The notes: a model not told the origin generated them from the sequence alone. A DNA stretch of 64,000 nt from Nitrososphaeraceae archaeon (GCA_035252175.1 DATFDI010000052.1:5193-69192), one strand, 5' to 3'; counted from the first letter of the stretch, positions 5,889 to 61,572 are shown. Numbers and translations are program-made.

Positions 5889-6360
5889 TATAACCACACA
5901 TTACCTTGTAATATTGCCAACCATGTAAATCACAGTTTTGACTCGTACTGTTGATCATGAGTATTGTGATACAGTGACAAAAGTATTCGGTACCATGCTT
6001 CCTTAAGTGAAGCAGGATTTGTAAAGCAATTCTAATCCAAATCTACTCTAGTAATATTAGGCTGACAAGGGAAGGATCTATAGTGCATTTTGCCGCTAAC
6101 TAAACAATGAAGGTCAATGGATAAACACAAAACCATCATGTGCTCAAAATTAACTTGACAATGTTTCTAGTCAGTATATCAGGTATTTTCTAGAAATTAG
6201 AATTCCAAGTGCAGATGAGCGAAATAATAAGAGCTCCTTAGTTTTAGTTTTATATGATAGAATTTTCTCTAAGAATATTTCTATAATAATGAGCAGTTTT
6301 ATTAAAAAGAGATGTTCTAGAATCAATTGGTATTAAAGAAAAATAACCTGATGAAATACT

Positions 6361-7776
6361 ATGATCGATACTATCTTATTTGTTGTAATTTCTACTTTCT
6401 GGTTTTCTTCTATTCCTGTAGCTTTTCTGACCCTAATACGGTTTTTGAGAAATAGAGATATTTTTGTTGAGAAAGATCTTAAAAGAATACATAATGATCC
6501 AATAATAATATTCCAGATAACCACACGTTCTGCAACAAAAACACCAGTTGTAAATAGAGGAATTAACTCAATAATTTCTTCTTCACACAAAATAAAATAT
6601 TCTAACTATTTTATCTCAGTTGTAAGTGACGACTTGGATGATGTTACAACATTAAGTTGCTTTGGCGGTAATGATAATTTTGAAGTTATTATAGTAGACA
6701 AGAAGTTCACTTCAAATGCGATTAAAAAGGGACGAGCTTTACAATATGCTGTAGAGCATCGACGCAAACTTGGATTGAATTCTTCAAAATATTGGGTATT
6801 TCATATGGATGATGAAAGTTATGTAACAAATCAAACTATTCTTTCACTTCTTAGATTTATTAGAGAAGATAATGCAATTGCATCTGAAGGTCCAATCTTC
6901 TATCCTTTGAAGTTTGAGTCAGCAAACTTTTTGACAGCAATTGCTGAGTCGGTAAGACCATTCACATGTTATGATTGTGTATCACAAATGACAAATCCTC
7001 CCCCATTGCATATGCATGGAAGCAACCTTCTAGTACGATCTGACATAGAAGATTCCATTGGATGGAACTTCGGGCCAACTCTCGCAGAGGATCAACTTTT
7101 TGGGTATAAAGTTTATGAAAAATATGGCCCAAAATCCTTAGGGTGGCATGGAGGTATACTTCTTGAGCAACCTCCACTCAATATGAAGGACCATTTCATG
7201 CAAAGACGGAGGTGGGTTGTAGGTAGTATGCAAAATATAAACAACTTCCCGTTAATACATCGGTTTAAGATGGTTTTCAAATTAGCAACATATTTTCTAG
7301 GTTTTATATCAGGTGTTGTCTCAATTATCCTTTACGCATATTTTCAGGTTCCAAAAATAATACCATTACTGCTATCCTCGTCTACATCAACAATCCATGA
7401 TATTAATCAAACAGTTGGTGCTGATATGTCAACTTGGTTCAACAAATTGTTTGATATCTTATCATCACAATCAGTAGTGCATACATTAACAAACGGTAGC
7501 CCAATAGAAGTAGGTATTGGTCTAATGTTATTATTCACTTCTGTCATGTGGCTATTGTCATACCAAGTAGGACTATTCCTGAATTTACGCTATTCAAAGA
7601 TTGGTTGGCCAAAAAGAATATTGTTCCACCTACAAACACTTGTATTGTGTTTAGTCATTGGTTTAATTGAAACATTTCCGGCATTCTGGGCAATGATTGA
7701 ATACTGTATTCGGAATAAAGTCATTAACAATAAAATAAAAACACAAGTCTATGACTTTTATGTAATTAACAAATAA
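6361..7776 (+). CDS. membrane-bound family 2 glycosyltransferase (processive type)
   Basis: DxD-like 'HMDDES' and the QxxRW motif 'QRRRW'. One N-terminal and several C-terminal hydrophobic helices. Confidence 0.7.
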   Translation: MIDTILFVVISTFWFSSIPVAFLTLIRFLRNRDIFVEKDLKRIHNDPIIIFQITTRSATKTPVVNRGINSIISSSHKIKYSNYFISVVSDDLDDVTTLSCFGGNDNFEVIIVDKKFTSNAIKKGRALQYAVEHRRKLGLNSSKYWVFHMDDESYVTNQTILSLLRFIREDNAIASEGPIFYPLKFESANFLTAIAESVRPFTCYDCVSQMTNPPPLHMHGSNLLVRSDIEDSIGWNFGPTLAEDQLFGYKVYEKYGPKSLGWHGGILLEQPPLNMKDHFMQRRRWVVGSMQNINNFPLIHRFKMVFKLATYFLGFISGVVSIILYAYFQVPKIIPLLLSSSTSTIHDINQTVGADMSTWFNKLFDILSSQSVVHTLTNGSPIEVGIGLMLLFTSVMWLLSYQVGLFLNLRYSKIGWPKRILFHLQTLVLCLVIGLIETFPAFWAMIEYCIRNKVINNKIKTQVYDFYVINK

Positions 7777-45275: not shown

Positions 45276-46070
45276 GTGAACAATATAGAACAAAAGCAGA
45301 AGTCTAATTCGCAGAGAAGAATAAAGAGACGAAAAGTTACTACTCCACTTGTACCTTCAATGGATGCCAGACCAATAGAGTATTATGCTCATATTATCCC
45401 TTATTTACAGAAAATTGAAATTAAAGGTAGATTTATTGTGATAGAAGGACCTGATGCTTCAGGTAGAAGTACACAGATTACAATGATAACTTCTAAGCTT
45501 GAATCAGATGGCCATGCTGTTTTGAATACAGGCTTGAGACGTTCAGAATTGATCAGTGAGGGAATACTAGAGGCAAAGAGAAACTTTGCTCTTGGAAAGA
45601 GAACATTAAGTTTGTTTTATGCTGCCGATTTTGCAGATCAGCTTGAGAATAGAATAATACCTGCTTTACGTGCAGGCTACATTGTACTTGCTGATAGGTA
45701 CATATATACGCTTATGGCTCGAGATGCTGTTAGAGGAATAGGAAGAGTCTGGTCACACAATCTATTTGGATTTGCTATAAAACCAGATCTGGTATTCTAT
45801 CTTGATGTTAGCCCAAACGAGCTGATTCACAGAGTATTTCAGAAAAACTCTTCACTAGATTATTATGAATCAGGTGCTGATCTCAGATTATCAGATGATA
45901 TGTTAAATTCGTTCTTGATTTATCAAAAACTCCTTGCAAAAGAATTTCGCAGAATGCAAAAACACTATAGCATAGAGTATATAAACGGAAATCGATCTAT
46001 AGTAGAAATTAATAACGACTTACAAGGACGAATTGATAAATTTCTTGGTACCAATCAGTTAGCAGCATAA
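45276..46070 (+). CDS. thymidylate-kinase-like protein A (degenerate P-loop)
   Basis: 'IVIEGPDASGRSTQI' P-loop with Arg in place of Lys, plus 'VLADRYIYT' (DRY motif). GTG start; an alternative ATG lies at 45360. Confidence 0.8.
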   Translation: MNNIEQKQKSNSQRRIKRRKVTTPLVPSMDARPIEYYAHIIPYLQKIEIKGRFIVIEGPDASGRSTQITMITSKLESDGHAVLNTGLRRSELISEGILEAKRNFALGKRTLSLFYAADFADQLENRIIPALRAGYIVLADRYIYTLMARDAVRGIGRVWSHNLFGFAIKPDLVFYLDVSPNELIHRVFQKNSSLDYYESGADLRLSDDMLNSFLIYQKLLAKEFRRMQKHYSIEYINGNRSIVEINNDLQGRIDKFLGTNQLAA

Positions 46071-46306
46071 CACCGTGGATCTTCCATATCTAATTCAATA
46101 ATAGATCGCCATTATATAATGATGTAATTATTGGAAGATCATTATTGAAGTAAATTTAAAACTAATCTGATTGTAAGATAAATAGCTGTCTACGACATTC
46201 GCCTGTTCCATATATATGAAATAGTACTGAAAATGATGTAGTTAAATGGGTGCAGATATGAGCACAATAATAACATAACGGCAAGACAAAGACATCAATT
46301 TATACT

Positions 46307-46549
46307 TCATCTGGTAATGTTGATTGGCTTAATAATATCTTTATTATTCTCCAGCTCCGTAAGATCATTGGCATTTGCAGCTTTTTTTGCAGCATTAAAG
46401 ATGATCTTTGCAACATATAGATCTATTCCCATTGTTGAAGCAATCCGACTCGGTCCACTCTTGATTATGGAGTCGACAGTGAAATCTGCATGGACAAGTG
46501 CATCTTTGAGGCCATTCGCAATTTCAAGCCTATGAATATCGAGATACAT
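46307..46549 (-). CDS. small helix-hairpin-helix protein
   Basis: 'IASTMGIDLYVAKIIFNAA' is HhH-like. Confidence 0.45.
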   Translation of the reverse strand: MYLDIHRLEIANGLKDALVHADFTVDSIIKSGPSRIASTMGIDLYVAKIIFNAAKKAANANDLTELENNKDIIKPINITR

Positions 46550-46829
46550 CCTATAATCAAAATAGTTACTTATGGAACAAAAATCTATTCAATATGAAAT
46601 AAGATTATCACACGATGATAATATAGATCTATGTGATCTATAAATCACTAAACGACAATAATACACTATGTTATAGGATTTCAAGTTAGACGTATTTGAT
46701 ATTTAATAGTCTATGTTTACTTGTATTCATGCTATCTAATAACTTTAATTGCATCAACAGCGAAAAGACGAAACGAAAATTTTTTAGATGGTGTTGTATG
46801 TACGGTTAAGATAATATAACTATTACCAT

Positions 46830-47363
46830 ATGTTTTTTGTTATGGACATGTTCATTTTGCGACATGGTGAAGCAGGCAAAAAAATCACTGGGGGAAATAA
46901 TAAAGATTCTGAAAGAGCTCTCACTGTTACCGGTCAAAAAGAGATGGCTGATATAGCAAATTCCCTCAAAGATTTGGGAATTAAGTTTGATCTTATAATT
47001 AGCAGTCCTTTAAAGAGAGCACATCAAACCGCGGCAATTGTTGCAAAGACACTTAAGAATGAAAAGAAAATAGAAGATTGGAATGAACTCAAGCCTGAAG
47101 GTAACAGACAAGATCTTTACCGTAAATTATCTTCGTCAACACGATTCAAACAATATTCATCTGTTCTTATCGTAGGACATGAACCATATCTTACAGAAAT
47201 GATAAGTGACATAATATCTGATGGAAAGGGCGGAGATGGACATATTGTCCTCAAGAAGGCAGGACTCGCAAAACTGACAATAACTTCTTTTACACCTCCA
47301 AACTTACATGGCGAATTAAAATGGCTACTTACTCCAAGGCATATAAGAAAAATGGGAAAATAA
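46830..47363 (+). CDS. sixA: SixA-like phosphohistidine phosphatase (histidine phosphatase superfamily)
   Basis: 'ILRHGEAG' catalytic RHG and a second 'VGHEP'. The start may be one of the downstream Met codons (46842 or 46848). Confidence 0.8.
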   Translation: MFFVMDMFILRHGEAGKKITGGNNKDSERALTVTGQKEMADIANSLKDLGIKFDLIISSPLKRAHQTAAIVAKTLKNEKKIEDWNELKPEGNRQDLYRKLSSSTRFKQYSSVLIVGHEPYLTEMISDIISDGKGGDGHIVLKKAGLAKLTITSFTPPNLHGELKWLLTPRHIRKMGK

Positions 47364-47630
47364 ATTTTCTTTGATATGTGTAGGTAAGTATTACGTACAA
47401 GATCAATTTTTATTATCCCATGTTTAATCATCGTCCGCGCAGAACAACTAATAAAATGCGATTCAGGTCTGTGGTTAGCGATTTCAACACAAAATAGTTG
47501 ATATATACTCACGAAATGAACTATATCATCTATATGGCAGTCAATTAGAATCTAGCAAGAAAATTATATAAATTTACATCAGAAGTGAAATAAAGAACAT
47601 AATGCTTACTCATCAGGACGAAAACTAGCT

Positions 47631-49187
47631 TTGAAAATATCGGTAATAGATGTTGGCTTTAATTCTGCCAAATTAGTCAATTATTATATAGAGAAAGATC
47701 ATTCATACGCGCCATATAGTCAGGAAGGAGTGACAGTCAGACTTGGAGAAGGAGTTGATGAATCTAGATTTCTGAATGAATCATCAATTCGCCGCACTAT
47801 TGATGCTTTAAAACTATTCCGCGATATTGTCAAATTTGAATCAGTAGATCATGTGCTTGCAGTCACAACAAGTGCTGTAAGAGAGGCAAATAACAAGGAT
47901 GATTTTCTTGCAGAGGTTTATCAAAAGACTGGTTTTCGGTTAAGAGTACTATCAGGCAAAGAGGAATCTCTATACTCATTTGGTGGAGCGTTGAGGAGTA
48001 TCTGTCTTCCTACTACACTTTTCTTTGATTTAGGCGGTGGTAGTCTGGAAATGGTGTATTCAGAAAACTTCAAAATTAAGAAAATTATCTCGCTACCTCT
48101 TGGTGCATTAAGGCTGTCGAATCTTTATAATGATGATAATAACTCTAAATCATTTACCAAGAAAAATTATGGCAGACTTGAACGACATATACTGCAAGAG
48201 CTTCCAGAAAGAAAAGAGCTTGAATTAAGTCCAGATACTATTCTAGTTGGTGTGGGTGGTACATTGCGAGCTATAACAAGATATGATCAAGATTTGAATA
48301 ATTATATCCTTGACAAAATTCACAATTATAGATTAGACTACGAATCTGTTAACTTAATTAGCAGAAAATTTTTTAAAATGACTGTAGATGAAATTGCTGA
48401 AATTGATGCAGTTGGAAACAACAGGGCAGAAACGATTACTGCTGGTTCTTGTATAATTAAGATACTCATGAAAAAACTTGGGTTCAACGGGGTTGTTGTA
48501 AGTGCTCAAGGACTTAGGGAAGGTATTCTTTTATCATTTTTGGAATCACCACAACAATATGATAAAGAAAGTATAACCCAGAATAAAATTCAAAATCACA
48601 TTCGAGTTAATTGTGAACTAGCAATAACTTCGAAGCATAGTGGAGACCTAATATCGCCACTAATTTCTAATAGGATACTCAAAGAGAAAGAATATCTAAT
48701 TCTCAACTTGGCTATAAAGCAAATGTCAAAGATACCCGCTACCACTAGTCTATACAATCTCTTTTATACACTCATTGATGAAGATCTTGCATATCTAACT
48801 CACAGTGAGCAATTGATCTTGGCATTGTCTATAATACATACAAAGAAACCGAAGATCGCAAACTGGTTATTCAAAAGATATGACTCAATTCTACGATCCC
48901 AAAATAAAAGATCCATTGAAAAAATTTCGGCATGTATTGTAATACTAGCTATTCTTGAAAGAACCAAATGTCATGTCAATTTGACATTTTATAATGAAAA
49001 GAAAATTGTTGTTGCAGTTGTGCTTGATGATAATATTAAATTTCCCGAAATGTTATTTAGAAACGCACTAAAAAAATTTGAAACCACTTTTAACGTTGTC
49101 GTAGATTTTTCAATTTCCATAAAGTCGAACAGGGGGACAACAACTACTAGTACAACAGCAATGAGAAAAGAGATACTGCTGAGATAG
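47631..49187 (+). CDS. ppx: Ppx/GppA family exopolyphosphatase
   Basis: 'VIDVGFNSAKL', 'DLGGGSLE' and 'VGVGGTLR' are ASKHA-fold Ppx/GppA motifs. There is a long helical C-terminal domain. Confidence 0.85.
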   Translation: MKISVIDVGFNSAKLVNYYIEKDHSYAPYSQEGVTVRLGEGVDESRFLNESSIRRTIDALKLFRDIVKFESVDHVLAVTTSAVREANNKDDFLAEVYQKTGFRLRVLSGKEESLYSFGGALRSICLPTTLFFDLGGGSLEMVYSENFKIKKIISLPLGALRLSNLYNDDNNSKSFTKKNYGRLERHILQELPERKELELSPDTILVGVGGTLRAITRYDQDLNNYILDKIHNYRLDYESVNLISRKFFKMTVDEIAEIDAVGNNRAETITAGSCIIKILMKKLGFNGVVVSAQGLREGILLSFLESPQQYDKESITQNKIQNHIRVNCELAITSKHSGDLISPLISNRILKEKEYLILNLAIKQMSKIPATTSLYNLFYTLIDEDLAYLTHSEQLILALSIIHTKKPKIANWLFKRYDSILRSQNKRSIEKISACIVILAILERTKCHVNLTFYNEKKIVVAVVLDDNIKFPEMLFRNALKKFETTFNVVVDFSISIKSNRGTTTTSTTAMRKEILLR

Positions 49188-49249
49188 AGATCATGTATCA
49201 AATTGTGAGTATAAATAAGTGGACATAAATAAGAGGAATAGACATTCAC

Positions 49250-50029
49250 TTGAAAAAAAATAACGATACCGATCATTCATCATCATCACTATCACAACAA
49301 CTACAACTACAACAACAACAAGATTATGCAAGCAAGTTAGAAGTAAAAGGCAAGCTTGTTGTAGTAGAGGGAATTGATGGTTCAGGCAAATCAACTCAAA
49401 TCAGACTAGTTGGCAAGTGGTTAAAGTCCAGATTGATTCCAGTTTTTATGACTGAATGGAATTCATCAGAATTGGTCAAAGAAATAACATCCAAAGGCAA
49501 GAAAAAAAATAGACTTACTCCTACAACTTTTAGTCTTTTACATGCAACTGATTTTGCAGATAGATATGAGCGCAATATATTCCCCCTATTGCGCGCTGGA
49601 TACATTGTATTAGCAGATAGATATGTGTATACTGCATATGCAAGAGACATAGTCAGAGGTTGCAGTCCAAAGTGGATTCGCAAAGTTTACGACTTTGCAG
49701 TAAAACCTGATGCCGTTTTTTACTTTAGAGTACCTATTGATGTTGCTATTGAAAGAATATCTGTAGGTAGGCCTAAACTGAAGTATTATGAAGCAGGAAT
49801 GGATCTGAATTTAAGTAATGACCCATATGATAGTTATAGGATTTTCCAAAGCAGAATCATTGAACAATATGAATCTATGATTAAACCTGAGCAATTTATA
49901 GTCATAGATGGAACATCAGGTATTGAAGAACAACAGCAATTAGTGAGAAAGACCATTATTAAGATACTTCCACATAAAGAAGGACAAATTACAAGAATCC
50001 ATACCCAACAGCAACAACCTAGGCTATAG
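49250..50029 (+). CDS. thymidylate-kinase-like protein B (canonical P-loop)
   Basis: 'VVVEGIDGSGKSTQI' and 'VLADRYVYT'. TTG start. The S/Q-rich N-terminus is encoded by imperfect trinucleotide repeats. Confidence 0.8.
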   Translation: MKKNNDTDHSSSSLSQQLQLQQQQDYASKLEVKGKLVVVEGIDGSGKSTQIRLVGKWLKSRLIPVFMTEWNSSELVKEITSKGKKKNRLTPTTFSLLHATDFADRYERNIFPLLRAGYIVLADRYVYTAYARDIVRGCSPKWIRKVYDFAVKPDAVFYFRVPIDVAIERISVGRPKLKYYEAGMDLNLSNDPYDSYRIFQSRIIEQYESMIKPEQFIVIDGTSGIEEQQQLVRKTIIKILPHKEGQITRIHTQQQQPRL

Positions 50030-50169: not shown

Positions 50170-50708
50170 TTACTTAAGTTCGTTCTTTTCTTTATATTTT
50201 TCTATAGCGTATAAGATCGTCTTCTTAGCTGCTTCTTTATCTTGAAACCCCTTTATCTTGACATGTTTTCCTTCCTCTAATTCCTTATGGTGTTCAATAA
50301 AGTGTTTAAGCTGATTTAATGTATATTCTTCAATGTCACTTAGATTGATGATCTTAGGAAAATCTGGATCATTCTTGAAATTGGAATTGCAATAATTTTG
50401 GAGTCTTGGCCGTCTTGATCTTCGGTTAACAACACCCCAATGGGGGTAGAGTGAATGATGGACATTGGTAATAGCGGATCATTACCAAGTACAAAAACGT
50501 CAATCAGATCTCCGTCTTCTTCAGTCTTAGGAATAAAGCCATAATTGCATGGATAGATCATCGATGTAGACAACATTCTATCTACAAATAATGCGCCACT
50601 GTCACTATCTATCTCATATTTAATTGCACTACCTTTAGGAATTTCTATTACCACAGTAATTTCGTCTGGAGGATTTTTGCCAGGGCTTAATGCATTTAGA
50701 CATATCAT
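50170..50708 (-). pseudogene. ppa: inorganic pyrophosphatase (family I) interrupted by one frameshift
   Basis: ORF 50340..50708 carries 'YPCNYGFIP...[10 protein letters not shown]...[20 protein letters not shown]'. In a shifted frame downstream it continues '[68 protein letters not shown]' to a TAA at 50170. The lesion is consistent with one A missing from an AAA run near 50374..50377. Confidence 0.85.
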
Positions 50709-51208
50709 TATTATCCTTTGGCTTTTTTATCTATTTATAAATGTCATAACACACATATAATACACTTATCGGCGTTCTTCACTCGATTTACTGCCTACGA
50801 TTTTTTTGAACACACTAATGTATATGATGTGTCTTTTTCAGAATACCACGAACTATAAAATGCTGCTACCAGAATACAGGATAATTATTTGTTGATCAAG
50901 CTTATGTTAAGAGAACAGTACTATAATACGTTCCTTCATTAGAGACACAACAATAATGCATCTCGGCATTGTTCTAGATGGTATGGCTTCTTTGCAACTA
51001 AGATTATTAAGAGTGAAAAAATTGATATATTAATATTTGATTTTTGACTTGATTTAAATTTAAATCATTATAATAAACATAGGGAAAGTGGAACAAGCCT
51101 TTAAGAAAAGAGTAGTTTTTGTATTATCTGAGAAAGATTTTGCTAGTCATTATAGCAATAAGTCTGTATACATATATTTAGGCTAAGTATCAATACGTCA
51201 GGCTGGCT

Positions 51209-51685
51209 TTGGCTGATGGCAAAGAACATGATAACGAAAATAACGACATAAATGACGATATTATTAGAGATTATAATTCCATAATAAGAGAAAGCGCTCT
51301 CCTAACTACCGTGTCTGGCTTCTTATTTGGTTTCCTTCTTAACACTTCTATAAATACGCCAAGAGGTTTTGGTCCTCTAGACAGTATAGTTCTAATGATC
51401 TCACTTTTTGCCATTACTCTCGCAGTATCACTCTTTGCAATGCCCGTAGTTTATCATCACTTACAATATCCATACAGAGATCTGGAGAAGTTTAAACTAA
51501 GAAGTCACAGATTCATCAAATTTGGCATAGTGCCTGCTGCTATCACCTTGTATCTGGGTTTAGATCTTGGATTAGATCTGGGTCTGAAACTTGGATTTCC
51601 ATCAATGAATTTCGATTATCTGGGATTTATTATCGCTGTAATACCGTTCGGATTCATTTACATTTTATTTAGAGAAAGAAAATAA
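51209..51685 (+). CDS. membrane protein (3-4 TM) with a GLDLGLDLGLKLG repeat
   Basis: Hydrophobic helices; no family recognised with confidence. Confidence 0.45.
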   Translation: MADGKEHDNENNDINDDIIRDYNSIIRESALLTTVSGFLFGFLLNTSINTPRGFGPLDSIVLMISLFAITLAVSLFAMPVVYHHLQYPYRDLEKFKLRSHRFIKFGIVPAAITLYLGLDLGLDLGLKLGFPSMNFDYLGFIIAVIPFGFIYILFRERK

Positions 51686-51909
51686 TAATAACATCAATTT
51701 CGAAGTAGAGTATAATAAAGATTAAATGCATAACTGTTAGCGATCAACATTCTGATATTGATATCTATTTCTCTACGATTTAAAATCGAATCCAAAAATA
51801 TATGCTTGTAATATCGGAAAATACAGTGATACTGTCTATCTGCATGTCATGCTTTGAAGTGATGTGCAAGCGCAGATCAATTTATAGAATAGCAAATGTC
51901 ATTTTCTGA

Positions 51910-52773
51910 TTATGTAAGAGCCCATATTTGGCTAAAGAAATTCTCCTTGGAATTCGATAGATTATCTTTGCAAAATCCAATAAACTCATTATATCTACGA
52001 GCTCTTTCTGCAATCACATCATCTAAAATATGACGAATTTCTTTAGAGTTTCTACTTCTTCTTAGATAAGTTATCATAATGTCATCGTCATGTATTGATC
52101 CCAGCATCTCTTGTATTTTCTCTAGTTCCGTTATAGTTCTCTCTACTTCCTTGTTGTTCTGATAACTAAGTAACTCCAATAAATAACGCAATTTCTTACA
52201 ATCTTTTCTCATTTCATGTAATTGTATTGTTCTGTCAGCATTTGTAAGTACAATTGGGAAATTAAGCTCTATTTTATCGCTAGACCTAGATATGATTTTG
52301 TTAAATCTTCGATTTAATTTTTCCTTAGAGATGTCTTTATCATATATTTTAGGTGGTTTGATTTTCCTTAGAGATAATGCCGTGTCCCTTCCTTTCCTTA
52401 GCTCTGCGTCTCTTCTCGTTTTTAATAATTCTGTTAGTTCAGTGTATATTGGTTGTGAAGAATAATTTCTGAGTTTTTCATAAATTATGTCATAATCTCT
52501 TATCTTACTATTTATTTTGAATAGTTGTTTGCACAGTTTAAGGTAATTGGATACTTTATTCCTTTTACGTACTTTCTTTGGTAATGATCTAAAGGAAGCA
52601 TCGGCCCTTCTGATGGATGTTCTTATATTGTGTATATTTTCCTCATTTGAGTCTGCTATATAGTCATTAACTCTCTTATCCACTCTTTGAAGGTTTTCTT
52701 GAAGTTTTGTTATAAAAGGTTTAGAAGAAATCGACAAAGAGTTCATTGTTATGTATATGTGTGATGTTATCAT
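51910..52773 (-). CDS. CHAD domain protein (polyphosphate-associated)
   Basis: All-helical. 'IHNIRTSIRRADASFRSL' and 'LHEMRKDCKKLRYLLELL' fit the CHAD conserved basic helices. The start may be the Met at 52746. Confidence 0.75.
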   Translation of the reverse strand: MITSHIYITMNSLSISSKPFITKLQENLQRVDKRVNDYIADSNEENIHNIRTSIRRADASFRSLPKKVRKRNKVSNYLKLCKQLFKINSKIRDYDIIYEKLRNYSSQPIYTELTELLKTRRDAELRKGRDTALSLRKIKPPKIYDKDISKEKLNRRFNKIISRSSDKIELNFPIVLTNADRTIQLHEMRKDCKKLRYLLELLSYQNNKEVERTITELEKIQEMLGSIHDDDIMITYLRRSRNSKEIRHILDDVIAERARRYNEFIGFCKDNLSNSKENFFSQIWALT

Positions 52774-53007
52774 ATGTATGTCTATTGGAGTATTGAGTTA
52801 GGATCATGTATTACTCTTATTCACTTAGTATTATATCTTGAAAGCAAATCAAATGTTCTTAAGTAGAGACCGATATCAAATTAATAGCTGTATATATTAC
52901 CAGAGTACAATTGATCCCAAATCAAAACTCAAAGCAGAAGATATAAATGAATTAAACATTGATTTCTTTGGGAGGAACAAGTGTGATCCACATAAAGCAT
53001 AGAGTGC

Positions 53008-53838
53008 TCAATCAATCGACAATTTCGAAATATCTATTTTGGGCTGCGGATATTTTAACTTCATATTGTCCAATGTTTTGATAAGAATCTGAGCCACTAC
53101 CCAATTACGAAACCATTTTGAATTTGCAGGGACAATGTACCAAGGCGCATAGTCGGTACTACAAACAGCCAAAGCTTTTTCATAGGATACCATGTATTTG
53201 TCCCAATACTTCCTGTTATGGAGATCACTTTCAGATATTTTCCAATGTTTTGTTGGATCATGCAACCTTTTTATGAGTCTCTTTTTCTGTTCGTCCTTGC
53301 TAATATGTAAAAAGAATTTTAGTACCATTATATGGTTATCTGATAAGTATTTCTCAAACTCATTGATTTGTCTAAATCTTGTAGTCAACTCATTTTTCGG
53401 AATCAAATTATGAACCTGAGGTTCAATCACATCTTCATAATGAGACCGATTAAAAACTGCTATTTGACCTTTTGCAGGAATTGCATTATGGACACGCCAA
53501 AGATAATCATGAGAAAGCTCCTCTGTAGTTGGAGCCTTAAATGCCTTTACATAGCAACTTTGAGGATTTAGCGCTCCCATTACATGTCGGATTGTGCCAT
53601 CTTTCCCCGAAGCATCAACTCCTTGAAGTATGATCACAAGAGCATGTCTATTGTCTGCGTAGAGCTTGTACTGCAATTCAGAAAGTTGGCTGGAAAAGGC
53701 TGTCAGCTCCGTCTCTACACTTTCTTTGCTTTTATTTGCGCGATAATCAGCATCCCAATTCCTTAGATTAAGTTTTTTTTTCACTTTTTCTGGCCTTACA
53801 AGAAATTTCCAACTAAACGCCATCGGTAATTTTAGCAA
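53008..53838 (-). CDS. ppk2: polyphosphate kinase 2 (single-domain PPK2)
   Basis: 'ILQGVDASGKDGTIRHV' is the PPK2 Walker A. 'YLWR' ... 'FNRSHYEDV' lid region. Confidence 0.9.
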   Translation of the reverse strand: MLKLPMAFSWKFLVRPEKVKKKLNLRNWDADYRANKSKESVETELTAFSSQLSELQYKLYADNRHALVIILQGVDASGKDGTIRHVMGALNPQSCYVKAFKAPTTEELSHDYLWRVHNAIPAKGQIAVFNRSHYEDVIEPQVHNLIPKNELTTRFRQINEFEKYLSDNHIMVLKFFLHISKDEQKKRLIKRLHDPTKHWKISESDLHNRKYWDKYMVSYEKALAVCSTDYAPWYIVPANSKWFRNWVVAQILIKTLDNMKLKYPQPKIDISKLSID

Positions 53839-53931
53839 TCAATGATTGCTGTATATATTATACTCGGATTTATTTTTAAATAAAAGGATGATGAGCAGAA
53901 GACGTAGAAAGTGTACGTAGAATGGCAAGTT

Positions 53932-54370
53932 ATGGTAAAATTCCTTGATAGAATCCATTACATAATATGTGTTGATGGCTCTCAGCCTGCAACGAAAGCT
54001 CTGGAATATGCAGCAAATCTTGCAACTAAAAATGAATCTCACTTATACATAGTGCATGTAATTAAAGAATTCGGTGAATTGATACAACGATTGGAGCAAC
54101 ACGATAGTTATGTAGAAGAAGTAAAAAGGCTTAGTAAAGACTTACTCCATGAATGTGAATCCAGAGCAAGAGAACTAGGAGTTACAAAATAGATACAATC
54201 GAAGAGTAATGCAATGCAGCAGAAAAGATTTTGCAGATAGCAAAAGATAAAGAAGTAGATACAATAGTTGTTGGAAACAAGAGTTTGAATACTGCCGAGG
54301 AATTATTGGAGGGAAGTGTGTCGCATAAAATAAGTCATCATGCAAGTGTTCAGTAGTTATTGTTAGATAG
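53932..54370 (+). pseudogene. universal stress protein, decayed (at least 3 lesions)
   Basis: The intact N-terminal half is 'HYIICVDGSQPATKALEYAANLA...LYIVHV'. The rest is recoverable only by switching frames: 'KIDTIEE*CNAAEKILQIAKDKEVDTIVVGNKSLNTAEELLEGSVSHKISHHA', then 'KCSVVIVR*'. Confidence 0.75.
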
Positions 54371-54476
54371 AGATGAAGTATGCAAACGATTCTTTGCTGT
54401 TAGGAAAGACTTTTTCTACAAATGGAAGGTACACATAGTTCTTGACATAGAGAGATCTTATGAATCCAGAAACTTC

Positions 54477-54567
54477 ATCATACCATGCTTACGATCCTTA
54501 CCGCGCATTATTGGAAAACAAATCTATCCTTAAGTAAGGATCGTAAGGGTAGTAAGTATGGTATGAT
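54477..54567. repeat. long imperfect inverted repeat
   Basis: The left arm atcataccatgcttacgatccttac (54477..54501) pairs with the right arm gtaaggatcgtaag[ggtagtaagt]atggtatgat (54534..54567). The right arm has a 10-nt segment where the exact complement would have one base. Confidence 0.6.
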
Positions 54568-54643
54568 TAAAAATACCTAAAAACAGCTGAAGTTCTTCTG
54601 TAACCCACAGGGAATTTTGTACTAGTTATAAGTTGACATATTT

Positions 54644-54690
54644 GTTAGTGTAGCCCCATAGCATTGGGCGATGCTACTGGGGTTTCTAAC
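54644..54690. other. GC-rich extended hairpin (possible small structured RNA)
   Basis: GTTAG-tg-TAGCCCCA-TAGCAT-tgggcg-ATGCTA-c-TGGGGTT-t-CTAAC, in an ORF-free region. Confidence 0.3.
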
Positions 54691-55120
54691 AAATGGGAGA
54701 ACAGAGTATCTTTAGTTTTCACTTGAGCAAATAAAGGCTTATCCAATATGAAATATCGATCTCACTATAGAATAACATTATCTAAAGATCACATTTCGGC
54801 AATGTCTATATCCACATTTTGGAATAATATAGCCAAGGCATATTCCCTCATTCCATAGGTAACAAAAATCCTTGTGTTTACAAGGTCACCATGCCAACTA
54901 TGGAGTTATGTATCACCTGAACATTCAGACCAACATTCAAACAGCGGTAGCATCAAGGTCATTGGAGTTTCCCCCAACAATCTTGAAAGAGAACTGCCTT
55001 AATTAGATATCCTCTAAGAGAAAAGGACATCCTATATAGAATACTGATCTGACAATAGAACATGAAGATCTATAATATCATATTCGATAATATCTAAATC
55101 TTCAATTTGTAACAAAAAAG

Positions 55121-55309
55121 ATGACTATGTACTTACAAGCTAAGAGATGTAGTTATGAGGATATTGACTGCCACTTTGTTGTTTGTCAAAAATGCTTTTG
55201 GACGGCAACCATATTTAGTTCAGCTAAAAAGAGTAAGAGCATAAAGATCTGTCCAATTTGCTCAGCCAATAATATATCCGTATATTCTATATTTAGGGAT
55301 GATGCATAG
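55121..55309 (+). CDS. small zinc-ribbon protein
   Basis: 'CHFVVCQKC' ... 'CPIC'. Confidence 0.35.
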   Translation: MTMYLQAKRCSYEDIDCHFVVCQKCFWTATIFSSAKKSKSIKICPICSANNISVYSIFRDDA

Positions 55310-55450
55310 CCATATTCTCTGATACATATAGACATAGAATAATATGATCAACTTCGAAATTAGAAATTCGGGACAACGTCTCTCGATCTACATTATTGAA
55401 TATCCACTCAATAATGCTTGATTACGGATCGCAATCACATGAATAAAAGA

Positions 55451-56545
55451 TCATACTTGACCTGGCGATCTTCTCTGTACTGTGATTACTTCCCCAATGG
55501 TCTGATTCATTGCTGCTTCTGCTATATCGCTTGCATATTCCGCAGTTCTCCTAATGTCTTCCAAAATTAGCTTAATGTTAATATTGCTCATCTTACTGTG
55601 AACAGTATCTTTGTTGTTGTAATTATTAATGAATGAAATTATGTCATTTTCGAGCGAAAGTATACCTTTTGCTTTGTCTACAACATTATCTGCCATAGCA
55701 TAGTCCCTGCGTAGTAATGCCTCTACTGCATCGCTAAGGGCTGCCAATGATAGATTACTCATCTTTTGAATTTTTTCAAAGAGACTTTCTGATATTTGTT
55801 GTTGCTGTCCTTCCTCTCTTATCTTTAAACATTTATCAGCAATTCCAGTTGAATGATCTGCTATTCGTTCTATGCTCTTTACTGCAACACGATAACTCAA
55901 ACAATCAGCAGGATTCTTTAGTCCTATTTCTCGAAGTACTCGTTCATTTTGTGTAGCTATTGCAAGATTTCTCAATATGTAGAGACTGAATCTATCTACC
56001 TCATCATCCGATTTTATTACTCCATTTGCTAATTCGTAGTTTCCTTCACCCAATGCCAAGATGGCATCTCTATGCATAGAAGACGCAATCAAAAACATTC
56101 TTCTGATTGCTGTATTAACTGAGAGTTCTGGAAGCGTAAGCAAGACTTGAATCGTGATTGTTTCTAAAGAATCAGCTATTATCTCTGTCCCAACCAAATT
56201 CTTACGTACGATTTCTCTAACTGCATCTCGCTGAGTAGAACTAATCCTTCCAGACTTTGATTTTAAATGTATAATATTGTATCCTGATAAATATATGGAT
56301 ATTACCTTACGTTGTAGAGAATTTACACTTTCCTTTTCTAATACAATTGCAGTTGCCTCGTTAGTTATACTAGAGTTTCTTTCTGCATTAGGTATTATCA
56401 GTAATGAGTTATTTGCTTCACGGGTAAGATTTACGGGATCCCCTGGTTTTAGGTGCATTTCCTGCATCCATTTTTTAGGTAATGATAAAATGTATGTTGA
56501 TCTACCTGTAAACTGTATTTTACGTACCTCACCATTTCCTGACAT
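55451..56545 (-). CDS. phosphate uptake regulator, AbrB/SpoVT N-domain plus two PhoU repeats
   Basis: 'RKIQFTGRSTYILSLPKKWMQEMHLKPGDPV' followed by PhoU-like helices ('ERIADHS', 'RRTAEYASDIAE'). Confidence 0.85.
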   Translation of the reverse strand: MSGNGEVRKIQFTGRSTYILSLPKKWMQEMHLKPGDPVNLTREANNSLLIIPNAERNSSITNEATAIVLEKESVNSLQRKVISIYLSGYNIIHLKSKSGRISSTQRDAVREIVRKNLVGTEIIADSLETITIQVLLTLPELSVNTAIRRMFLIASSMHRDAILALGEGNYELANGVIKSDDEVDRFSLYILRNLAIATQNERVLREIGLKNPADCLSYRVAVKSIERIADHSTGIADKCLKIREEGQQQQISESLFEKIQKMSNLSLAALSDAVEALLRRDYAMADNVVDKAKGILSLENDIISFINNYNNKDTVHSKMSNINIKLILEDIRRTAEYASDIAEAAMNQTIGEVITVQRRSPGQV

Positions 56546-56636
56546 GTAACTCTGGTTTTTTGGAGGTTTACACTAGGTATTATATATTTTTGAAGTGTGA
56601 TCATATAATTTATATAGTTCTATATAGATCACGTAG

Positions 56637-57314
56637 TTAGCGTCTAGGACTTGAGACGCCAGTTACTATATAATGCACAGAATCACCGATATAACATGCA
56701 TGATCCGAAATACGTTCTAGATAACGTAATATCAATAAAGCTGAGATATAGCAGTGGGGGCTAGTGTTATATTCAGGAGGAAGAGTATTTTGTTGTTGCT
56801 TGTGCGAGGATGATGATACAATTATATCCCGAAGATACTTTCTGTACAATGCATCTACAACATTATCCATCTGGTAGAGTTTTTCAACTGCATTCTTATC
56901 GCGTGACTGTAAAGCTTGTAAGCTAATATCTATCATCTCCATTACGATTTTTGACATTTCAGCTACTGCGGATTTATCACAGTCAGCTATGGAGCCCATC
57001 GTTTCAAGGACGTCTACTATATCATACGAATAACGTCCAAATCTGGAAAATCCATATGAAATCTCCATACATGACTTGATAAATCTAAGATCACTGGCCA
57101 CAGGCTGATAACGCGCAATTAGCTCTACTGCAAGATCAGATACCTCTTCTTGCAATACTCTTAATTTTTCTGACCAATCAAAAATTTGTTTCTTTATCTG
57201 AAGCCCGCTCTGATAGGAGTCTATCGCAGTAAATACAGAATTCTCAGATAATTTAGACATATCCATAATAATGTTACGTATACGGTCAAGGCCAAGATCT
57301 AATAGACGAGTCAT
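56637..57314 (-). CDS. phoU: PhoU phosphate signalling protein
   Basis: Two PhoU repeats ('FGRYSYDI', 'LERISDHACYIGD'). Confidence 0.85.
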   Translation of the reverse strand: MTRLLDLGLDRIRNIIMDMSKLSENSVFTAIDSYQSGLQIKKQIFDWSEKLRVLQEEVSDLAVELIARYQPVASDLRFIKSCMEISYGFSRFGRYSYDIVDVLETMGSIADCDKSAVAEMSKIVMEMIDISLQALQSRDKNAVEKLYQMDNVVDALYRKYLRDIIVSSSSHKQQQNTLPPEYNTSPHCYISALLILRYLERISDHACYIGDSVHYIVTGVSSPRR

Positions 57315-57415
57315 ATAATTGATAACAAACCATTAGAAGAAAAGAATTCTTTTAGGTTAGAATGAGAATTCAATTTTCATTTTCATTTTTATGGAAACTC
57401 ATTCAAATTCAGTGC

Positions 57416-58270
57416 CTATCCAAATTTTCCTGAGATATATCGTTCTGTTAGCTCTTTCTGAGGATTCTTAAATATCTGATCTGTTGGTCCATACTCAATT
57501 AATTCTCCCAGGTACATAAAAGCTGTGAAGTCTGATACTCTTGCAGCCTGTGTCATATTATGCGTAACAGTAATTATAGCCAGCTCCTTTTTCAATTCAT
57601 GTACAAGCTCTTCAATTTTGGAAGATGCTATAGGATCTAGTGCAGAAGTCGGTTCATCCATAAGCAATACCTCAGGCTGCATTGCAAGTGCCCTTGCAAT
57701 GCATAGACGTTGTTGCTGACCCCCTGACAACCCAATTCCTGGTTTATCAAGTTCGTTCTTTACTTCATCCCAAAGCGCAGCACCTTTAAGACTTTCCTCA
57801 ACTATATCATTGATCAATCTCTTATCTTTGATACCATTTAGTTTTAATCCTGCTGCCACGTTATCATAAACACTCATCGTAGGAAATGGGTTTGGTTTTT
57901 GAAAAACCATTCCAACGCGTCTTTTTATAATTACTGGATCAACAGCTTTATCATAAATATCGATATCGTCGATCATTACACGGCCTTTTGCGGTTGCACC
58001 TGGAGTCATCTCATGCATACGATTTAAACAACGGATAAGTGTTGTCTTACCGCATCCTGAGGGTCCTATAATGGCTGTTGCAACATTTGATCTTATATCC
58101 AAATTAATATTTTTTAATACCTGCTTGGTTCCAAACCACGCATCAAGATTCCTAATGGATACTTTATACAATACCTGATCGTCGTAATCCATGTCTTTTT
58201 TTGATGGTTCTACTTTTGGTAAACGATCATGTATAGCTTCATCAATTGTCAAGCCACATATCTTCCTCAT
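57416..58270 (-). CDS. pstB: phosphate ABC transporter ATPase PstB
   Basis: 'GPSGCGKTT', 'LSGGQQQRL', '[11 protein letters not shown]'. Confidence 0.95.
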
Positions 58271-58321
58271 TAACTATACATATGCCTTGTCTATATGTAT
58301 GACATAGATCTATATAGATAC

Positions 58322-59257
58322 CTATACATGCAATGTTTTAACTCTAAAGCCTTTACGCTGAACTATCATTCTTAGAACTACGCTTGCGATTAGCACTATA
58401 ATTATTAGTAGCAAAGCTGCACCCCATCCTTGAGAATGAGCTGTGTCGTACGGCTGAGAAGCTAATCTCCATATCCTAAGGGGTAAGGCATCAATTGGTT
58501 TATTAAAGCTTGTAAAGAACAAACTTGTACCCAGAATAGTCATAATTAAAGGTGCAGTTTCACCTGCAATTCTCGATATCGCTAGTACAATGCCTGTGAG
58601 AACTCCACTTTTGGCACTCTTTAGAACCACGAATAATGTTATTTTCCACCGTGAAATTCCAAGTGAGTAGCCAGCCTCACGAATAGAATTTGGTACAACC
58701 TTAAGTGTCTCTTCGGTGATTCTTACCACTATGGGTATCATAATTATCGATAAAGAGAAGGCTCCAGCTAAGACTGAAAAGGAGCCAATTGTGAGTACTA
58801 TTGTTATATATCCAACTATTCCAATTACTACTGAGGGCAAACCCGTAAGAACATCATTAAATAGTCTGACTGCAGATGGAAATAATCCATTACCAGGGGC
58901 AAATTCTGATAGATAAATGCCAGCAAGGATTCCTATAGGAACTCCTATTGCTGATGCTAATCCTACAACAATCAATGTTCCTTGAATTGCAGGAGCAATA
59001 CCTCCGCTATCCTCTAATGTAGCCCCAATTGCACCTGGAGGTTGAGTTAATAATTGTATGCTAATTGCTGAAGCACCATTTTTTATCACTTCTAGTAATA
59101 TGCTTCCCAATGGAATTATGGCAGCTAACACACAAGCTATAGAGAAAATACTTACCAGCTTGTCGATCAATTTGCGCCTATGGGAATACCTCGACATTAT
59201 ATCATGAATTTTCTGCTTATTATTGACAGGATTCTGCTCAGTTGTGTTTTTGTGCAT
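58322..59257 (-). CDS. pstA: phosphate ABC transporter permease PstA
   Basis: Six-TM permease with the EAA-like loop 'REAGYSLGISRWK'. Its position follows pstC. Confidence 0.9.
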   Translation of the reverse strand: MHKNTTEQNPVNNKQKIHDIMSRYSHRRKLIDKLVSIFSIACVLAAIIPLGSILLEVIKNGASAISIQLLTQPPGAIGATLEDSGGIAPAIQGTLIVVGLASAIGVPIGILAGIYLSEFAPGNGLFPSAVRLFNDVLTGLPSVVIGIVGYITIVLTIGSFSVLAGAFSLSIIMIPIVVRITEETLKVVPNSIREAGYSLGISRWKITLFVVLKSAKSGVLTGIVLAISRIAGETAPLIMTILGTSLFFTSFNKPIDALPLRIWRLASQPYDTAHSQGWGAALLLIIIVLIASVVLRMIVQRKGFRVKTLHV

Positions 59258-59261
59258 ATGT

Positions 59262-60284
59262 TTATTCCCTTACTCCTGCACTGACCTTTACCATTCTTGA
59301 TACCAGTAGGCGTGCGCCTATGTTAATCCCAATTGTTAAAATAAGCAAAACTGCTCCAAGTCCAATTAGAGCTGAGAGTTGTAAACTTGACGAAGCTTCA
59401 TTAAATTCGTTAGCAATTAAACTTGCTAACGTTTGACTTTGGGAAAATAGGGACGTTGGAATAGCCGCTGCACCAATTGTATTTCCAATGATCATTGTAA
59501 CTAGTATAGTTTCACCTATTGCTCTGCCCAGCCCAAGAATCGCCGCTCCTAGTAATCCTGATTTTGCATAGGGAAAAATAGCAATTCTCACAGTTTCCCA
59601 CCGAGTTGCCCCTAGACTATACGCCGCTTCTCTTTGGGAATTTGGTACTGCTTTTATTATCTCCCGAGAAATTGACGAGACAATAGGTATAATCATTACA
59701 GCAAGAACTATTCCAGCCGTGAAAACATCTAAACCAAACGGTGTTTGGGCAAAGAAAGGAATCGATCCACCAAAGGCGTTATACAAGGGCTGCTCAATTA
59801 AGTCTCTGACCCAAAATCTAAAAACAAACAAAGCCCATAATCCATAAATAATGCTTGGAACTGCAGCTAACAGTTCTACGATAAATGACAGTGGTACACT
59901 AATTTTTGCTGGTGCCATTTCTGACAAGAAAACGGCAATACCAAGGCTTATAGGAACTCCAATTACCATGGCTAAAGCTGAGCTAATTAATGTTCCAACA
60001 ATATATGGCAAAGCTCCAAATGATTCGCGACCCTCTACTGAATTCCAATTAGTACCAGTTATGAAACCAAAAAAGCCTTCTTTTAAAAATATATCTTTGG
60101 ATCCATCACCAACCGAAAAGACTACAAGCACAATCATAAGTAAAGTGTAACATGCAGCAGCAATCACCAGGCCATGAAATATCTTATCTCCTCTTCGTTT
60201 ACCCGTCAGGAAAAACGAAGATAAATTCTTCTTTCTAGCTTGTTTATTGATTTCAGTAATAGTAATAGTCAAAACACCATCCAT
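59262..60284 (-). CDS. pstC: phosphate ABC transporter permease PstC
   Basis: Permease with 'REAAYSLGATRWE'. Its position follows pstS. Confidence 0.9.
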   Translation of the reverse strand: MDGVLTITITEINKQARKKNLSSFFLTGKRRGDKIFHGLVIAAACYTLLMIVLVVFSVGDGSKDIFLKEGFFGFITGTNWNSVEGRESFGALPYIVGTLISSALAMVIGVPISLGIAVFLSEMAPAKISVPLSFIVELLAAVPSIIYGLWALFVFRFWVRDLIEQPLYNAFGGSIPFFAQTPFGLDVFTAGIVLAVMIIPIVSSISREIIKAVPNSQREAAYSLGATRWETVRIAIFPYAKSGLLGAAILGLGRAIGETILVTMIIGNTIGAAAIPTSLFSQSQTLASLIANEFNEASSSLQLSALIGLGAVLLILTIGINIGARLLVSRMVKVSAGVRE

Positions 60285-60468
60285 TCATATTATAAGATGT
60301 ATGAAAGCCAGGTATCTGCATTATGCTTTTTAGCTTTTACATGGTTAATTAAATGATATGTAAAAACAACTAACGTGTGAGCATCATTTGCAGTTAATTT
60401 AATTGATGTCATATTATAGTTGGTTATATTGTCCAAGAGAAAATAAAAAATTTGGTCCTTAGGCAGCA

Positions 60469-61572
60469 TCAGATTATTGGCTTCCCATGTAAGGTTAAAG
60501 ATTTCAAAGTGTCTTGGTCAAGTTTAACGACCTGATCAGGCAACGGAACATATCCTAGCTTATCTGCAAACTTTTGGCCATCAGTTATTGCCCAGGAGAT
60601 AAAGTCAACTAATGCTTTTGCCTTTGCATCGTCAATGCTCGGGTTAGTACTCAACTCTTTGTATAGAAGAAGATATGAGAAGCTAGCAATAGGGTATGAT
60701 TCTGCTCCCTGAGCATTGACTACTGAAACTGAGTCCCATGACTGATCTCCTTTTGGAAGGTTTGGTGCTGAGGCACTAACCGCAGCTTCAGTTGAGCTCA
60801 TCGATGGTTCAATAAATTTGCCTGCTTGATTTTGTAAAAATGCATATGGCATTTTTGTTGTTAGTGCATAAGCCAACTCAACATAGCCTATAGTATTTTG
60901 GGTGCCCTTTACTGCGTTAGCAACACCTTCATTGCCTGGAGCACCTATTCCTGTTGGCCATGGCACAGATTTTGAGGTACCAACCTTGTTATTCCATTCA
61001 GAGCTTACTTTGGAAAGATAATCCGTCCAGACAAAAGTCGTACCCGAACCATCTGATCTATGGACAACTACGATGTTGTTAGAAGGTAGAGATACACCAG
61101 GATTCAGAGATTGTATTTTTGCATCATTCCACTTTTTAATATTACCTAAAAATATATCTGCGACAACCGGGCCTGAAAGTTTCAGTCCTTTATTTTTAAA
61201 GTTGGGAAGATTGTAAGCTACTACTACAGAACCAATTGTTTCAGGTATATGTACAGCACCTGGAGCAGCTTTCTGTTCTGACTTTGATAAAGGAGCATCT
61301 GAAGCACCAAAGTCAACCGTTTTTTCAGTAAATTGTTTAACTCCTCCTCCACTACCTATGGATTGGTAGTTTATATTTACAGTTGGCTTCACTTTCTGAT
61401 ATTGTACCCGCCACGAATCAATTAGCGGAAATGGAAAAGTCGCACCTGCGCCATTTATAGATATTTGACTTTGTGCATACGATGACTTAACGGACATACT
61501 TGCTGGCATAATAGCTATTATAAGAATAAGTATACCTGCCGTAAATCCCATCAGCAATGGTTTGATATTCAT
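60469..61572 (-). CDS. pstS: phosphate-binding protein PstS
   Basis: Signal anchor, 'GAGATFPFP', 'GSGGG', 'HRSDGSGTTFVWTDYL'. Confidence 0.9.
   Translation of the reverse strand: MNIKPLLMGFTAGILILIIAIMPASMSVKSSYAQSQISINGAGATFPFPLIDSWRVQYQKVKPTVNINYQSIGSGGGVKQFTEKTVDFGASDAPLSKSEQKAAPGAVHIPETIGSVVVAYNLPNFKNKGLKLSGPVVADIFLGNIKKWNDAKIQSLNPGVSLPSNNIVVVHRSDGSGTTFVWTDYLSKVSSEWNNKVGTSKSVPWPTGIGAPGNEGVANAVKGTQNTIGYVELAYALTTKMPYAFLQNQAGKFIEPSMSSTEAAVSASAPNLPKGDQSWDSVSVVNAQGAESYPIASFSYLLLYKELSTNPSIDDAKAKALVDFISWAITDGQKFADKLGYVPLPDQVVKLDQDTLKSLTLHGKPII

Follow-up and report, generated by a model that had tools for sequence, protein, structure and literature searches.

The closest described system to the one considered here is PPK3 of Sulfolobus acidocaldarius, a heteromeric polyphosphate (polyP) kinase formed by Saci_2019 and Saci_2020 (Hofmann et al., J Biol Chem 2026, PMC12995831; bioRxiv 10.1101/2024.08.28.610084). 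Saci_2019 is the catalytic subunit (cPPK3), which alone acts as a weak homomeric polyP kinase; Saci_2020 (rPPK3) is inactive, boosts activity about 10-fold, and contributes the dimer at the centre of an alpha2beta2 complex (SaPPK3). The reaction is reversible, with the direction ADP + polyP -> ATP strongly preferred, and neither subunit has deoxythymidine monophosphate (dTMP) kinase activity, which is present in Saci_0893, the real thymidylate kinase (Tmk). The inactivity of rPPK3 has been ascribed to the replaced arginine of its DRX motif, and basic residues have been tied to the polyP cleft and lid. The Sulfolobus operon reads sixA-ppx-c-r-CHAD, the majority of genomes with PPK3 lack PPK1 and PPK2, and the Nitrososphaeraceae are already given as a main PPK3-bearing family, with SixA/PPX/CHAD/Pst neighbourhoods (PMC12995831). 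The window that we analysed comprises 64,000 nucleotides of Nitrososphaeraceae archaeon DNA (GCA_035252175.1 DATFDI010000052.1:5193-69192; all coordinates are window-relative), in which two Tmk-like open reading frames (ORFs), A (45276..46070, plus strand) and B (49250..50029, plus strand), bracket a sixA and a ppx gene.

We consider it probable, at roughly 0.85, that this locus encodes SixA, PPX, and CHAD alongside the PPK3 that they usually accompany, whose activity, heteromeric state, and reaction direction would, by homology, be those of the Sulfolobus enzyme. The A/B pair, itself uncharacterised, very likely adds one more member with a rearranged gene order to the PPK3 system; the family as such is no novelty, because Hofmann et al. 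describe it and already include the Nitrososphaeraceae (PMC12995831). An earlier interpretation of the window, the sequence-only reading, had pointed to a polyP kinase made of two Tmk-like proteins encoded beside ppx in S. acidocaldarius, and this enzyme is real and published (PMC12995831). The alternative offered in the sequence-only reading, a polyP-dependent nucleotide kinase, matches the measured preference of SaPPK3 for ADP + polyP -> ATP. We judge weak the accompanying argument that PPK2 only consumes polyP and that the pair is therefore a synthase.

A and B are paralogs: they align without gaps over 215 amino acids (aa) at 42% identity (E 3e-54), and both match the Pfam family Thymidylate_kin (PF02223; A 2.6e-19, B 7.2e-23). 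The coordinates and strand given for them in the sequence-only reading are right, and every shared block quoted there is found (DFAD, LRAGYIVLADRY[IV]YT, RD[AI]VRG, KPD.VFY, and L.YYE[SA]G[AM]DL). The statement that both carry a P-loop plus DRY holds for B (GIDGSGKST) but only in part for A, which keeps the DRY while the Walker-A lysine of its P-loop (GPDASGRST) is replaced by arginine.

B (259 aa, TTG start) shares 50% identity with Saci_2019 (215 bits) and 26% with Saci_2020. Its best match in the PDB is STK_15430 (E 4.6e-65), a protein that, for A and B alike, beats canonical Tmk as a match by more than 20 orders of magnitude. The AlphaFold2 model of B (predicted local distance difference test score, pLDDT, 86.3) has 5h70_B as its top Foldseek hit, with a template modelling (TM) score of 0.96 and a root-mean-square deviation of 1.2 Å; canonical Tmks come next, with TM scores of about 0.85 and 25-29% identity. 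In a neighbor-joining tree of 62 sequences (100 bootstraps, with the canonical Tmks of S. aureus and P. falciparum as outside group), the B-type sequences group with the Sulfolobales cPPK3 at 95% bootstrap support, and the PPK3 proteins split from the two canonical Tmks with 89%. The phylogeny, a check proposed in the sequence-only reading, places both A and B in the PPK3 clade. B also keeps GKS, DRY, and R105, R174, and K178, the basic residues of lid and cleft, which are the features of a cPPK3 catalytic subunit. The alignments, the tree, and the predicted structure show that B is the cPPK3 ortholog.

The assignment of A (264 aa, GTG start) draws on other evidence. Its best PDB match is STK_15430 as well (2plr/5h70; 2.8e-36, with canonical Tmk at about 1e-13), and it is 34% identical to Saci_2019 and 33% identical to Saci_2020. 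In a comparison of alignment columns among 76 A-type sequences, 80 B-type sequences, and five c and five r sequences from the Sulfolobales, 16 columns are fixed differently in the A-type and B-type proteins. The Sulfolobales rPPK3 have the A state in 11 of these columns and the B state in none, and the Sulfolobales cPPK3 have the B state in 11 of the 16. The columns in which rPPK3 shares the A state are, in B numbering, K47R, E69G, W70L, H98Y, R105Q, A129L, F159L, G173K, K178D, A182S, and F199Y. In the neighbor-joining tree rPPK3 is nested within the A-type sequences, and the alternative clades, c with r and A with B, occur in none of the 100 bootstraps. On the shared substitutions and the tree topology, we assign A to the rPPK3 lineage, which would go back to a single ancient duplication and within which A has evolved slowly and is less degenerate.

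Several observations weigh against this interpretation of the pair. The bipartition uniting A-type and r sequences has a bootstrap of just 43%, and profile hidden Markov models (HMMs) of the Sulfolobales proteins do not tell which of the two subunits A is, with mean scores for A of 145 bits (c) and 141 bits (r). The orthology of A and rPPK3 therefore rests mainly on the shared substitutions. The AlphaFold2 monomer model of A is poor (pLDDT 47.7, with 17 close homologs aligned) and was set aside. A retains the DRY arginine, R149, and KPD. To our knowledge, the biochemistry of PPK3 comes from members of the Sulfolobales only. Finally, co-expression of the Sulfolobus type cannot be assumed, because a small antisense ORF parts A from sixA-ppx-B.

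A begins with an N-terminal extension of about 49 residues (residues 1-49, 45276-45420), which includes a basic stretch, QRRIKRRK, present only in close relatives. The basic stretch is followed by the segment RPIEYYG.GIPYL, which is conserved in the A-type proteins of the Nitrososphaeraceae and absent from the Sulfolobales rPPK3. A role of this N-terminal segment in polyP binding or at a subunit interface is possible.

The motif states were read at two levels. A scan of GTDB species genomes gave 578 confirmed relatives, of which the best 80 loci are listed (50 archaeal and 30 bacterial), and a homolog search among 1.84 billion 50%-identity representatives gave 8867 relatives, the top 150 of which were examined for motifs. 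In all 76 A-type orthologs of the loci listed, from Nitrososphaerales and bacteria, the Walker-A lysine is replaced by arginine, and all 76 keep D-R-[YF] (D140-R141-Y142 in A itself). Among the best 150 of the 8867 relatives, the DxY arginine is present in each of the 53 A-type sequences with a determinable motif; the A-type Walker residue is arginine in 64, cysteine in six, another residue other than lysine in five, and lysine in two, and B-type sequences always have the Walker lysine and the DRY arginine. The five Sulfolobales rPPK3 sequences all read D-G-Y, three of the five have the Walker arginine, and Saci_2020 has a lysine. The replacement of the DRX arginine stated for rPPK3s (PMC12995831) is thus not seen in A. 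Four basic residues that are invariant in cPPK3 are changed in A (R105Q, R108N, R174N, and K178D). Judged from these alignments, the degeneracy of the partner subunit across the family is the loss of the Walker lysine together with the loss of the basic residues R105, R108, R174, and K178. The loss of the DRX arginine looks like a later, Sulfolobales-specific step that does not define the family.

Because A keeps the arginine whose loss explains the inactivity of rPPK3 (PMC12995831), A is perhaps not inert. An alternative explanation for the pair is that A provides a functional second site that binds nucleotide or polyP by means of the intact DRY, R149, and KPD and the P-loop with its arginine, acting as a sensor of energy charge or as a weak or different catalytic site, unlike in SaPPK3. 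The conservation of D-R-[YF] and of the Walker arginine in 76 of 76 orthologs, together with the DxY arginine in 53 of 53 representatives, speaks for such a site. A is also very strongly conserved, with 74-88% identity among Nitrososphaeraceae homologs and long invariant stretches, and the D-G-Y of all five Sulfolobales rPPK3 means that the published mechanism of inactivity is not transferable to A. However, a lysine-to-arginine change in the Walker A motif usually cripples phosphotransfer in P-loop NTPases, and the presence of C, I, V, F, or T at this position in some representatives suggests a relaxed catalytic requirement there. Moreover, the basic residues that A has lost are linked to the polyP cleft and lid (PMC12995831). 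We therefore regard a functional second site in A as unlikely, though it is the most serious competitor of a PPK3 whose A subunit is the degenerate partner.

Candidate fusions of the two subunits occur among the relatives. B-type and then A-type domains are found in a single chain in P0242 (460 aa), P0253 (696 aa), P0273, P0296, P0374, P0309, and P0347, as read from protein records only; P0253 carries an additional C-terminal HD-like domain. The A-type P-loop in these fusions is still more degenerate (e.g., GSDYSGHYQRS). One possible fusion is all that is mentioned in the published account (PMC12995831). The existence of candidate B-linker-A fusions supports a physical partnership of A and B outside the Sulfolobales.

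Between A and B, on the same strand, lie a gene for a SixA-type phosphohistidine phosphatase with an RHG motif (46830..47363; PF00300 4.4e-13; TIGR00249 96.9 bits, cut-off 74.5) and ppx, which encodes a 518-aa exopolyphosphatase of the Ppx/GppA family (47631..49187; PF02541 1.4e-53; TIGR03706 246 bits, below the 307-bit cut-off). The flanking of these two genes by A and B had been read correctly, as had the ppx stop at 49187 and the start of B at 49250. The true start of sixA is probably the ATG at 46842; its ortholog in L002, one of the closest relatives of the window, begins MDIFILRHG. The ppx product exceeds its Sulfolobales counterpart in length by about 100 aa. The order A-orf80-sixA-ppx-B-PPase, in which orf80 is the antisense ORF and PPase an inorganic pyrophosphatase gene, recurs in Logan assemblies of three sequencing runs (L082-L084) with 100%, 99.7%, and 99.7% DNA identity, and protein A is identical across these samples. 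Since the order recurs in assemblies of three runs, the arrangement is no assembly artefact. The window has a G+C content of about 34% and contains archaeal chromosomal genes for aEF-2, an Lhr-type helicase, TatC, Ku, and mannosyl-3-phosphoglycerate synthase.

In most of the loci listed, the two subunit genes are neighbors. The next gene after B, on the same strand, is A in 48 of the 50 archaeal and 28 of the 30 bacterial loci (76 of 80), and the only archaeal exceptions are L001 and L002, the closest relatives of the window, whose contigs carry sixA-ppx-B but lack A. In the 50 archaeal loci listed, ppx lies directly upstream of cPPK3 in 28, CHAD lies within the locus in 31 and usually directly downstream of rPPK3, and phoU/pst orthologs adjoin PPK3 in 22. 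In seven listed loci, which are titled Nitrosotalea, Nitrosopumilaceae, or Nitrosopumilales or carry phylum-level names only, sixA-ppx is divergent from c-r. In the window, c and r are 3.2 kb apart, with the antisense ORF between A and sixA, and the linkage to sixA, ppx, and CHAD is present. The bracket order r-sixA-ppx-c, followed by PPase on the minus strand, is also found in the metagenomic contigs L089 and L090 (A 85% identical), and the classical order CHAD-c-r is found in L091 (A 81% identical). L089 lacks the antisense ORF, and its intergenic gaps are 138, 285, and 3 bp. The sequence-only reading had proposed to check whether relatives share the bracket order: L089 and L090 do, and most listed relatives have c and r adjacent. 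Nitrososphaerales and Sulfolobales alike retain the link of the pair to ppx, and with it to sixA, CHAD, and pst. The bracket order is best described as a derived, stable trait of a small subclade, in which r has left its place behind c and now stands ahead of sixA. This retains the observation that sixA-ppx stands between the subunit genes and replaces the proposal that sixA-ppx had been inserted there (loci listed, L089-L091).

A simple inversion of an A-CHAD segment was considered as the origin of the rearrangement and rejected: L002 has B followed by CHAD on the minus strand, with no inverted A beyond it. A search of the 64-kb window with tblastn found neither a third Tmk-like gene nor a remnant of A downstream of B. 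L001 and L002 are two sixA-ppx-cPPK3 loci in one metagenome-assembled genome (MAG; GS_HAYS_MAG_00077), with B proteins 83% and 91% identical to that of the window; either a mixed bin or a true duplication may account for the two loci.

The rearrangement raises the question of whether the two subunits still act together. A TATA-like box precedes each of A (45253), sixA (46812), ppx (47563), and B (49211), which suggests that A and B are probably transcribed separately in the window; in a genome with 34% G+C such boxes are weak evidence. One could assume that the relocated A has become independent of B and works with another partner, or that B alone is a weak homomeric polyP kinase, given the position of A 3.2 kb ahead of B, with an antisense ORF in between and a TATA-like box of its own, and given that L001 and L002 have B without A on the contig. 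However, the order r-sixA-ppx-c is conserved in L089 and L090, the short gaps of L089 fit a single operon, A keeps every residue that is invariant in its family, and it is still located inside the same polyP gene island. A decoupling of the subunits is therefore very unlikely.

The database names of both proteins point in another direction. A is 100% identical to an NCBI record named thymidylate kinase [Nitrososphaeraceae archaeon]; among the closest 120 A homologs listed, the named records are dTMP or thymidylate kinases or hypothetical proteins, and the 120 listed homologs of STK_15430, which are of the B/cPPK3 type, are all named dTMP or thymidylate kinase. NCBIfam TIGR00041 cannot tell PPK3 and Tmk apart, and release 20 of NCBIfam is without a PPK3 model; with a cut-off of 83.25 bits, B scores marginally above (90.3) and A below (80.7). 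Because the two proteins straddle this cut-off, the current dTMP-kinase names are explained. The residues F66 (the stacking phenylalanine), R70, S97, and Q101 of S. aureus Tmk, which we take to be the thymine/dTMP contacts, align with H98, F102, A129, and D133 of B and with Y115, F119, L146, and D150 of A, and the dTMP-contact residues are replaced throughout the A-type and B-type subfamilies. The notion that A, B, or both are ordinary dTMP kinases that make dTDP and are only incidentally linked to ppx finds support in the Pfam matches, in the score of B above the TIGR00041 cut-off, in the public names, and in the lack of any other tmk in the window, but it is hardly credible given the replaced thymine contacts, the placement of both proteins in the PPK3 clade apart from canonical Tmk (89% bootstrap), the score of A under the cut-off, the conserved linkage to sixA, ppx, CHAD, and pst in Nitrososphaerales and Sulfolobales, and the dTMP kinase activity of Saci_0893 and its absence from Saci_2019 and Saci_2020 (PMC12995831).

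For a PPK3 made of A and B, the following mechanism may be proposed. B would use the canonical P-loop site for ATP or ADP and a basic cleft, in place of the dTMP site, for polyP, and would shuttle phosphate in both directions between ATP/ADP and the polyP chain end. By analogy to SaPPK3, A would dimerise and dock one B on each side, thereby stabilising its active conformation. The net role would probably be the regeneration of ATP from polyP at low energy charge, with synthesis of polyP at high ATP/ADP. PPX, PPase, CHAD, PPK2, and Pst/PhoU may round out an island of phosphate and polyP homeostasis.

The genes noted downstream of B in the sequence-only reading, CHAD, PPK2, PPase, and pst-phoU, are all found at 50170-61572. 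The PPase gene, convergent with B (50170..50708, minus strand; PF00719 1.6e-33; the end near 50170 is approximate), is frameshifted: the ORF ends after 122 aa at 50340, past ...AIPISR, and the reading continues in another frame. The 99.7% identical strain L083 has an intact PPase of 179 aa (6274-6813), and the frameshift stems either from an indel introduced by sequencing or assembly or from recent decay into a pseudogene. Further genes encode a CHAD-domain protein of a family associated with polyP granules (51910..52773, minus strand; PF05235 7.6e-23) and a single-domain PPK2-family polyP kinase (53008..53838, minus strand; PF03976 6.3e-75; TIGR03709 360 bits, cut-off 247.2), and a gene for a DUF6328-like membrane protein lies downstream of B among the PPase, CHAD, and PPK2 genes. 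Two phoU genes and pstB-pstA-pstC-pstS, for high-affinity phosphate uptake, follow at 55451..61572 on the minus strand (from ORF translations). The PPK2 gene is 3 kb from cPPK3 and is unrelated to the PPK3 family; neither A nor B matches the PPK2 domain PF03976 at E <= 0.01. PPK2 within 10 kb occurs in none of the 50 archaeal loci listed and, among all 80, only in L052, from a Lindowbacteria MAG. Because the PPK2 gene (TIGR03709) lies near cPPK3, the island would combine two unrelated polyP:nucleotide phosphotransferases. A PPK1-sized gene is absent from the window, as the sequence-only reading had noted; the only ORFs of more than 600 aa encode the Lhr-type helicase and aEF-2.

The antisense ORF between A and sixA, orf80 (46307..46549, minus strand, 80 aa), has no match in Pfam or NCBIfam. 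A homolog with 64% aa identity occupies the matching position in L002 (681-929), a 78-aa minus-strand gene is found at this position in L090 (2532-2768), and orf80 is called as a gene in L082-L084. The small ORFs at this position in the window, L002, and L090 range from 78 to 82 aa.

The distribution of the subunit pair extends beyond the Nitrososphaeraceae. Judged by the titles of the records, pairs are also present in ammonia oxidisers of the Nitrosopumilaceae type, namely Nitrosotalea, Nitrosotenuis, Nitrosopumilus, and Cenarchaeum (L008, L013-L016, L018, L020-L023, L025, L031, L036, L041-L043, and L047). Among the bacterial loci L052-L080, c-r pairs with 54-65% identity to B are common in MAGs of Verrucomicrobiota (Pedosphaerales/Limisphaerales) and are also found in MAGs of Planctomycetota, Lindowbacteria, Bacillota, and Acidobacteriota; in the bacterial loci, sixA and CHAD are mostly not within 10 kb. 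Since the scan had 578 confirmed relatives, of which the best 80 are listed, the phrase "a few bacteria" may understate the bacterial spread.

The assignment proposed here would correct the recurrent public annotation of A-type and B-type proteins as dTMP kinases. It would also place a complete polyP toolkit (PPK3, PPX, SixA, CHAD, PPase, PPK2, and Pst/PhoU) in a soil ammonia oxidiser, which bears on the buffering of phosphate and energy in a globally important group of nitrifiers. What the alignments add to the published picture is that, in archaea and bacteria alike, the hallmark of the partner subunit is the loss of the Walker-A lysine and not that of the DRX arginine, and this hallmark offers a mutagenesis target for how r activates c. 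The motif pattern of A qualifies the general statement made for rPPK3 (PMC12995831), in a way that is useful but will not surprise a polyP specialist. If A did have a functional second site, then the explanation by loss of the DRX arginine would be a peculiarity of the Sulfolobales, A would set the direction or rate of the enzyme by energy charge, and the PPK3 of the soil-abundant mesophilic Nitrososphaerales and Verrucomicrobiota would be regulated by a different mechanism.

Among known systems, canonical Tmk (TIGR00041; S. aureus, T. thermophilus) resembles A and B in fold, in the position of the P-loop, and in the DRY motif (TM about 0.85; E about 1e-12), but differs in its low identity of 25-29%, in the thymine residues, in its separate clade, and in the dTMP kinase activity that characterised PPK3 lack. 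The two-domain class II PPK2 (P. aeruginosa PA3455) likewise combines an active P-loop module with a degenerate, oligomerising paralog (PMC12995831); however, it belongs to another P-loop kinase family and has both modules fused in one chain, an architecture for which PPK3 has candidates in B-A fusions such as P0242. STK_15430 of Sulfurisphaera tokodaii (PDB 2plr, 4nzy, 4rzx, and 5h70; deposited as dTMP kinase), the top match of A and B, is a catalytic subunit crystallised alone, whose structures cover neither the r-type subunit nor the complex.

Closer to the window are other loci of the Nitrososphaerales (L007, L009, L012, and L046), whose B proteins are 67-91% and A proteins 58-78% identical to those of the window, with matching P-loop and DRY states and often with pst/phoU nearby. 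In these loci r directly follows c, whereas in the window, L089, and L090 it stands ahead of sixA; in the window CHAD is inverted, and PPase, the DUF6328-like gene, and PPK2 are interposed. SaPPK3 shares with the window two paralogs of the dTMP kinase fold, one with an intact and one with a degenerate active site, the linkage to sixA, ppx, and CHAD, and, in A, the substitutions that mark r, namely E->G, W->L, H->Y, R105->Q, A->L, G->K, and K178->D. The differences are that the window reads r-(orf80)-sixA-ppx-c where the overlapping genes of Sulfolobus read sixA-ppx-c-r-CHAD, that the DRY arginine, R149, and KPD of A are lost in all five Sulfolobales rPPK3 examined, and that A has an arginine where Saci_2020 has the Walker lysine. 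In addition, A and B are both extended at the N terminus, PPK2 is encoded at a distance of 3 kb where the Sulfolobales have none, and the host of the window is a mesophile.

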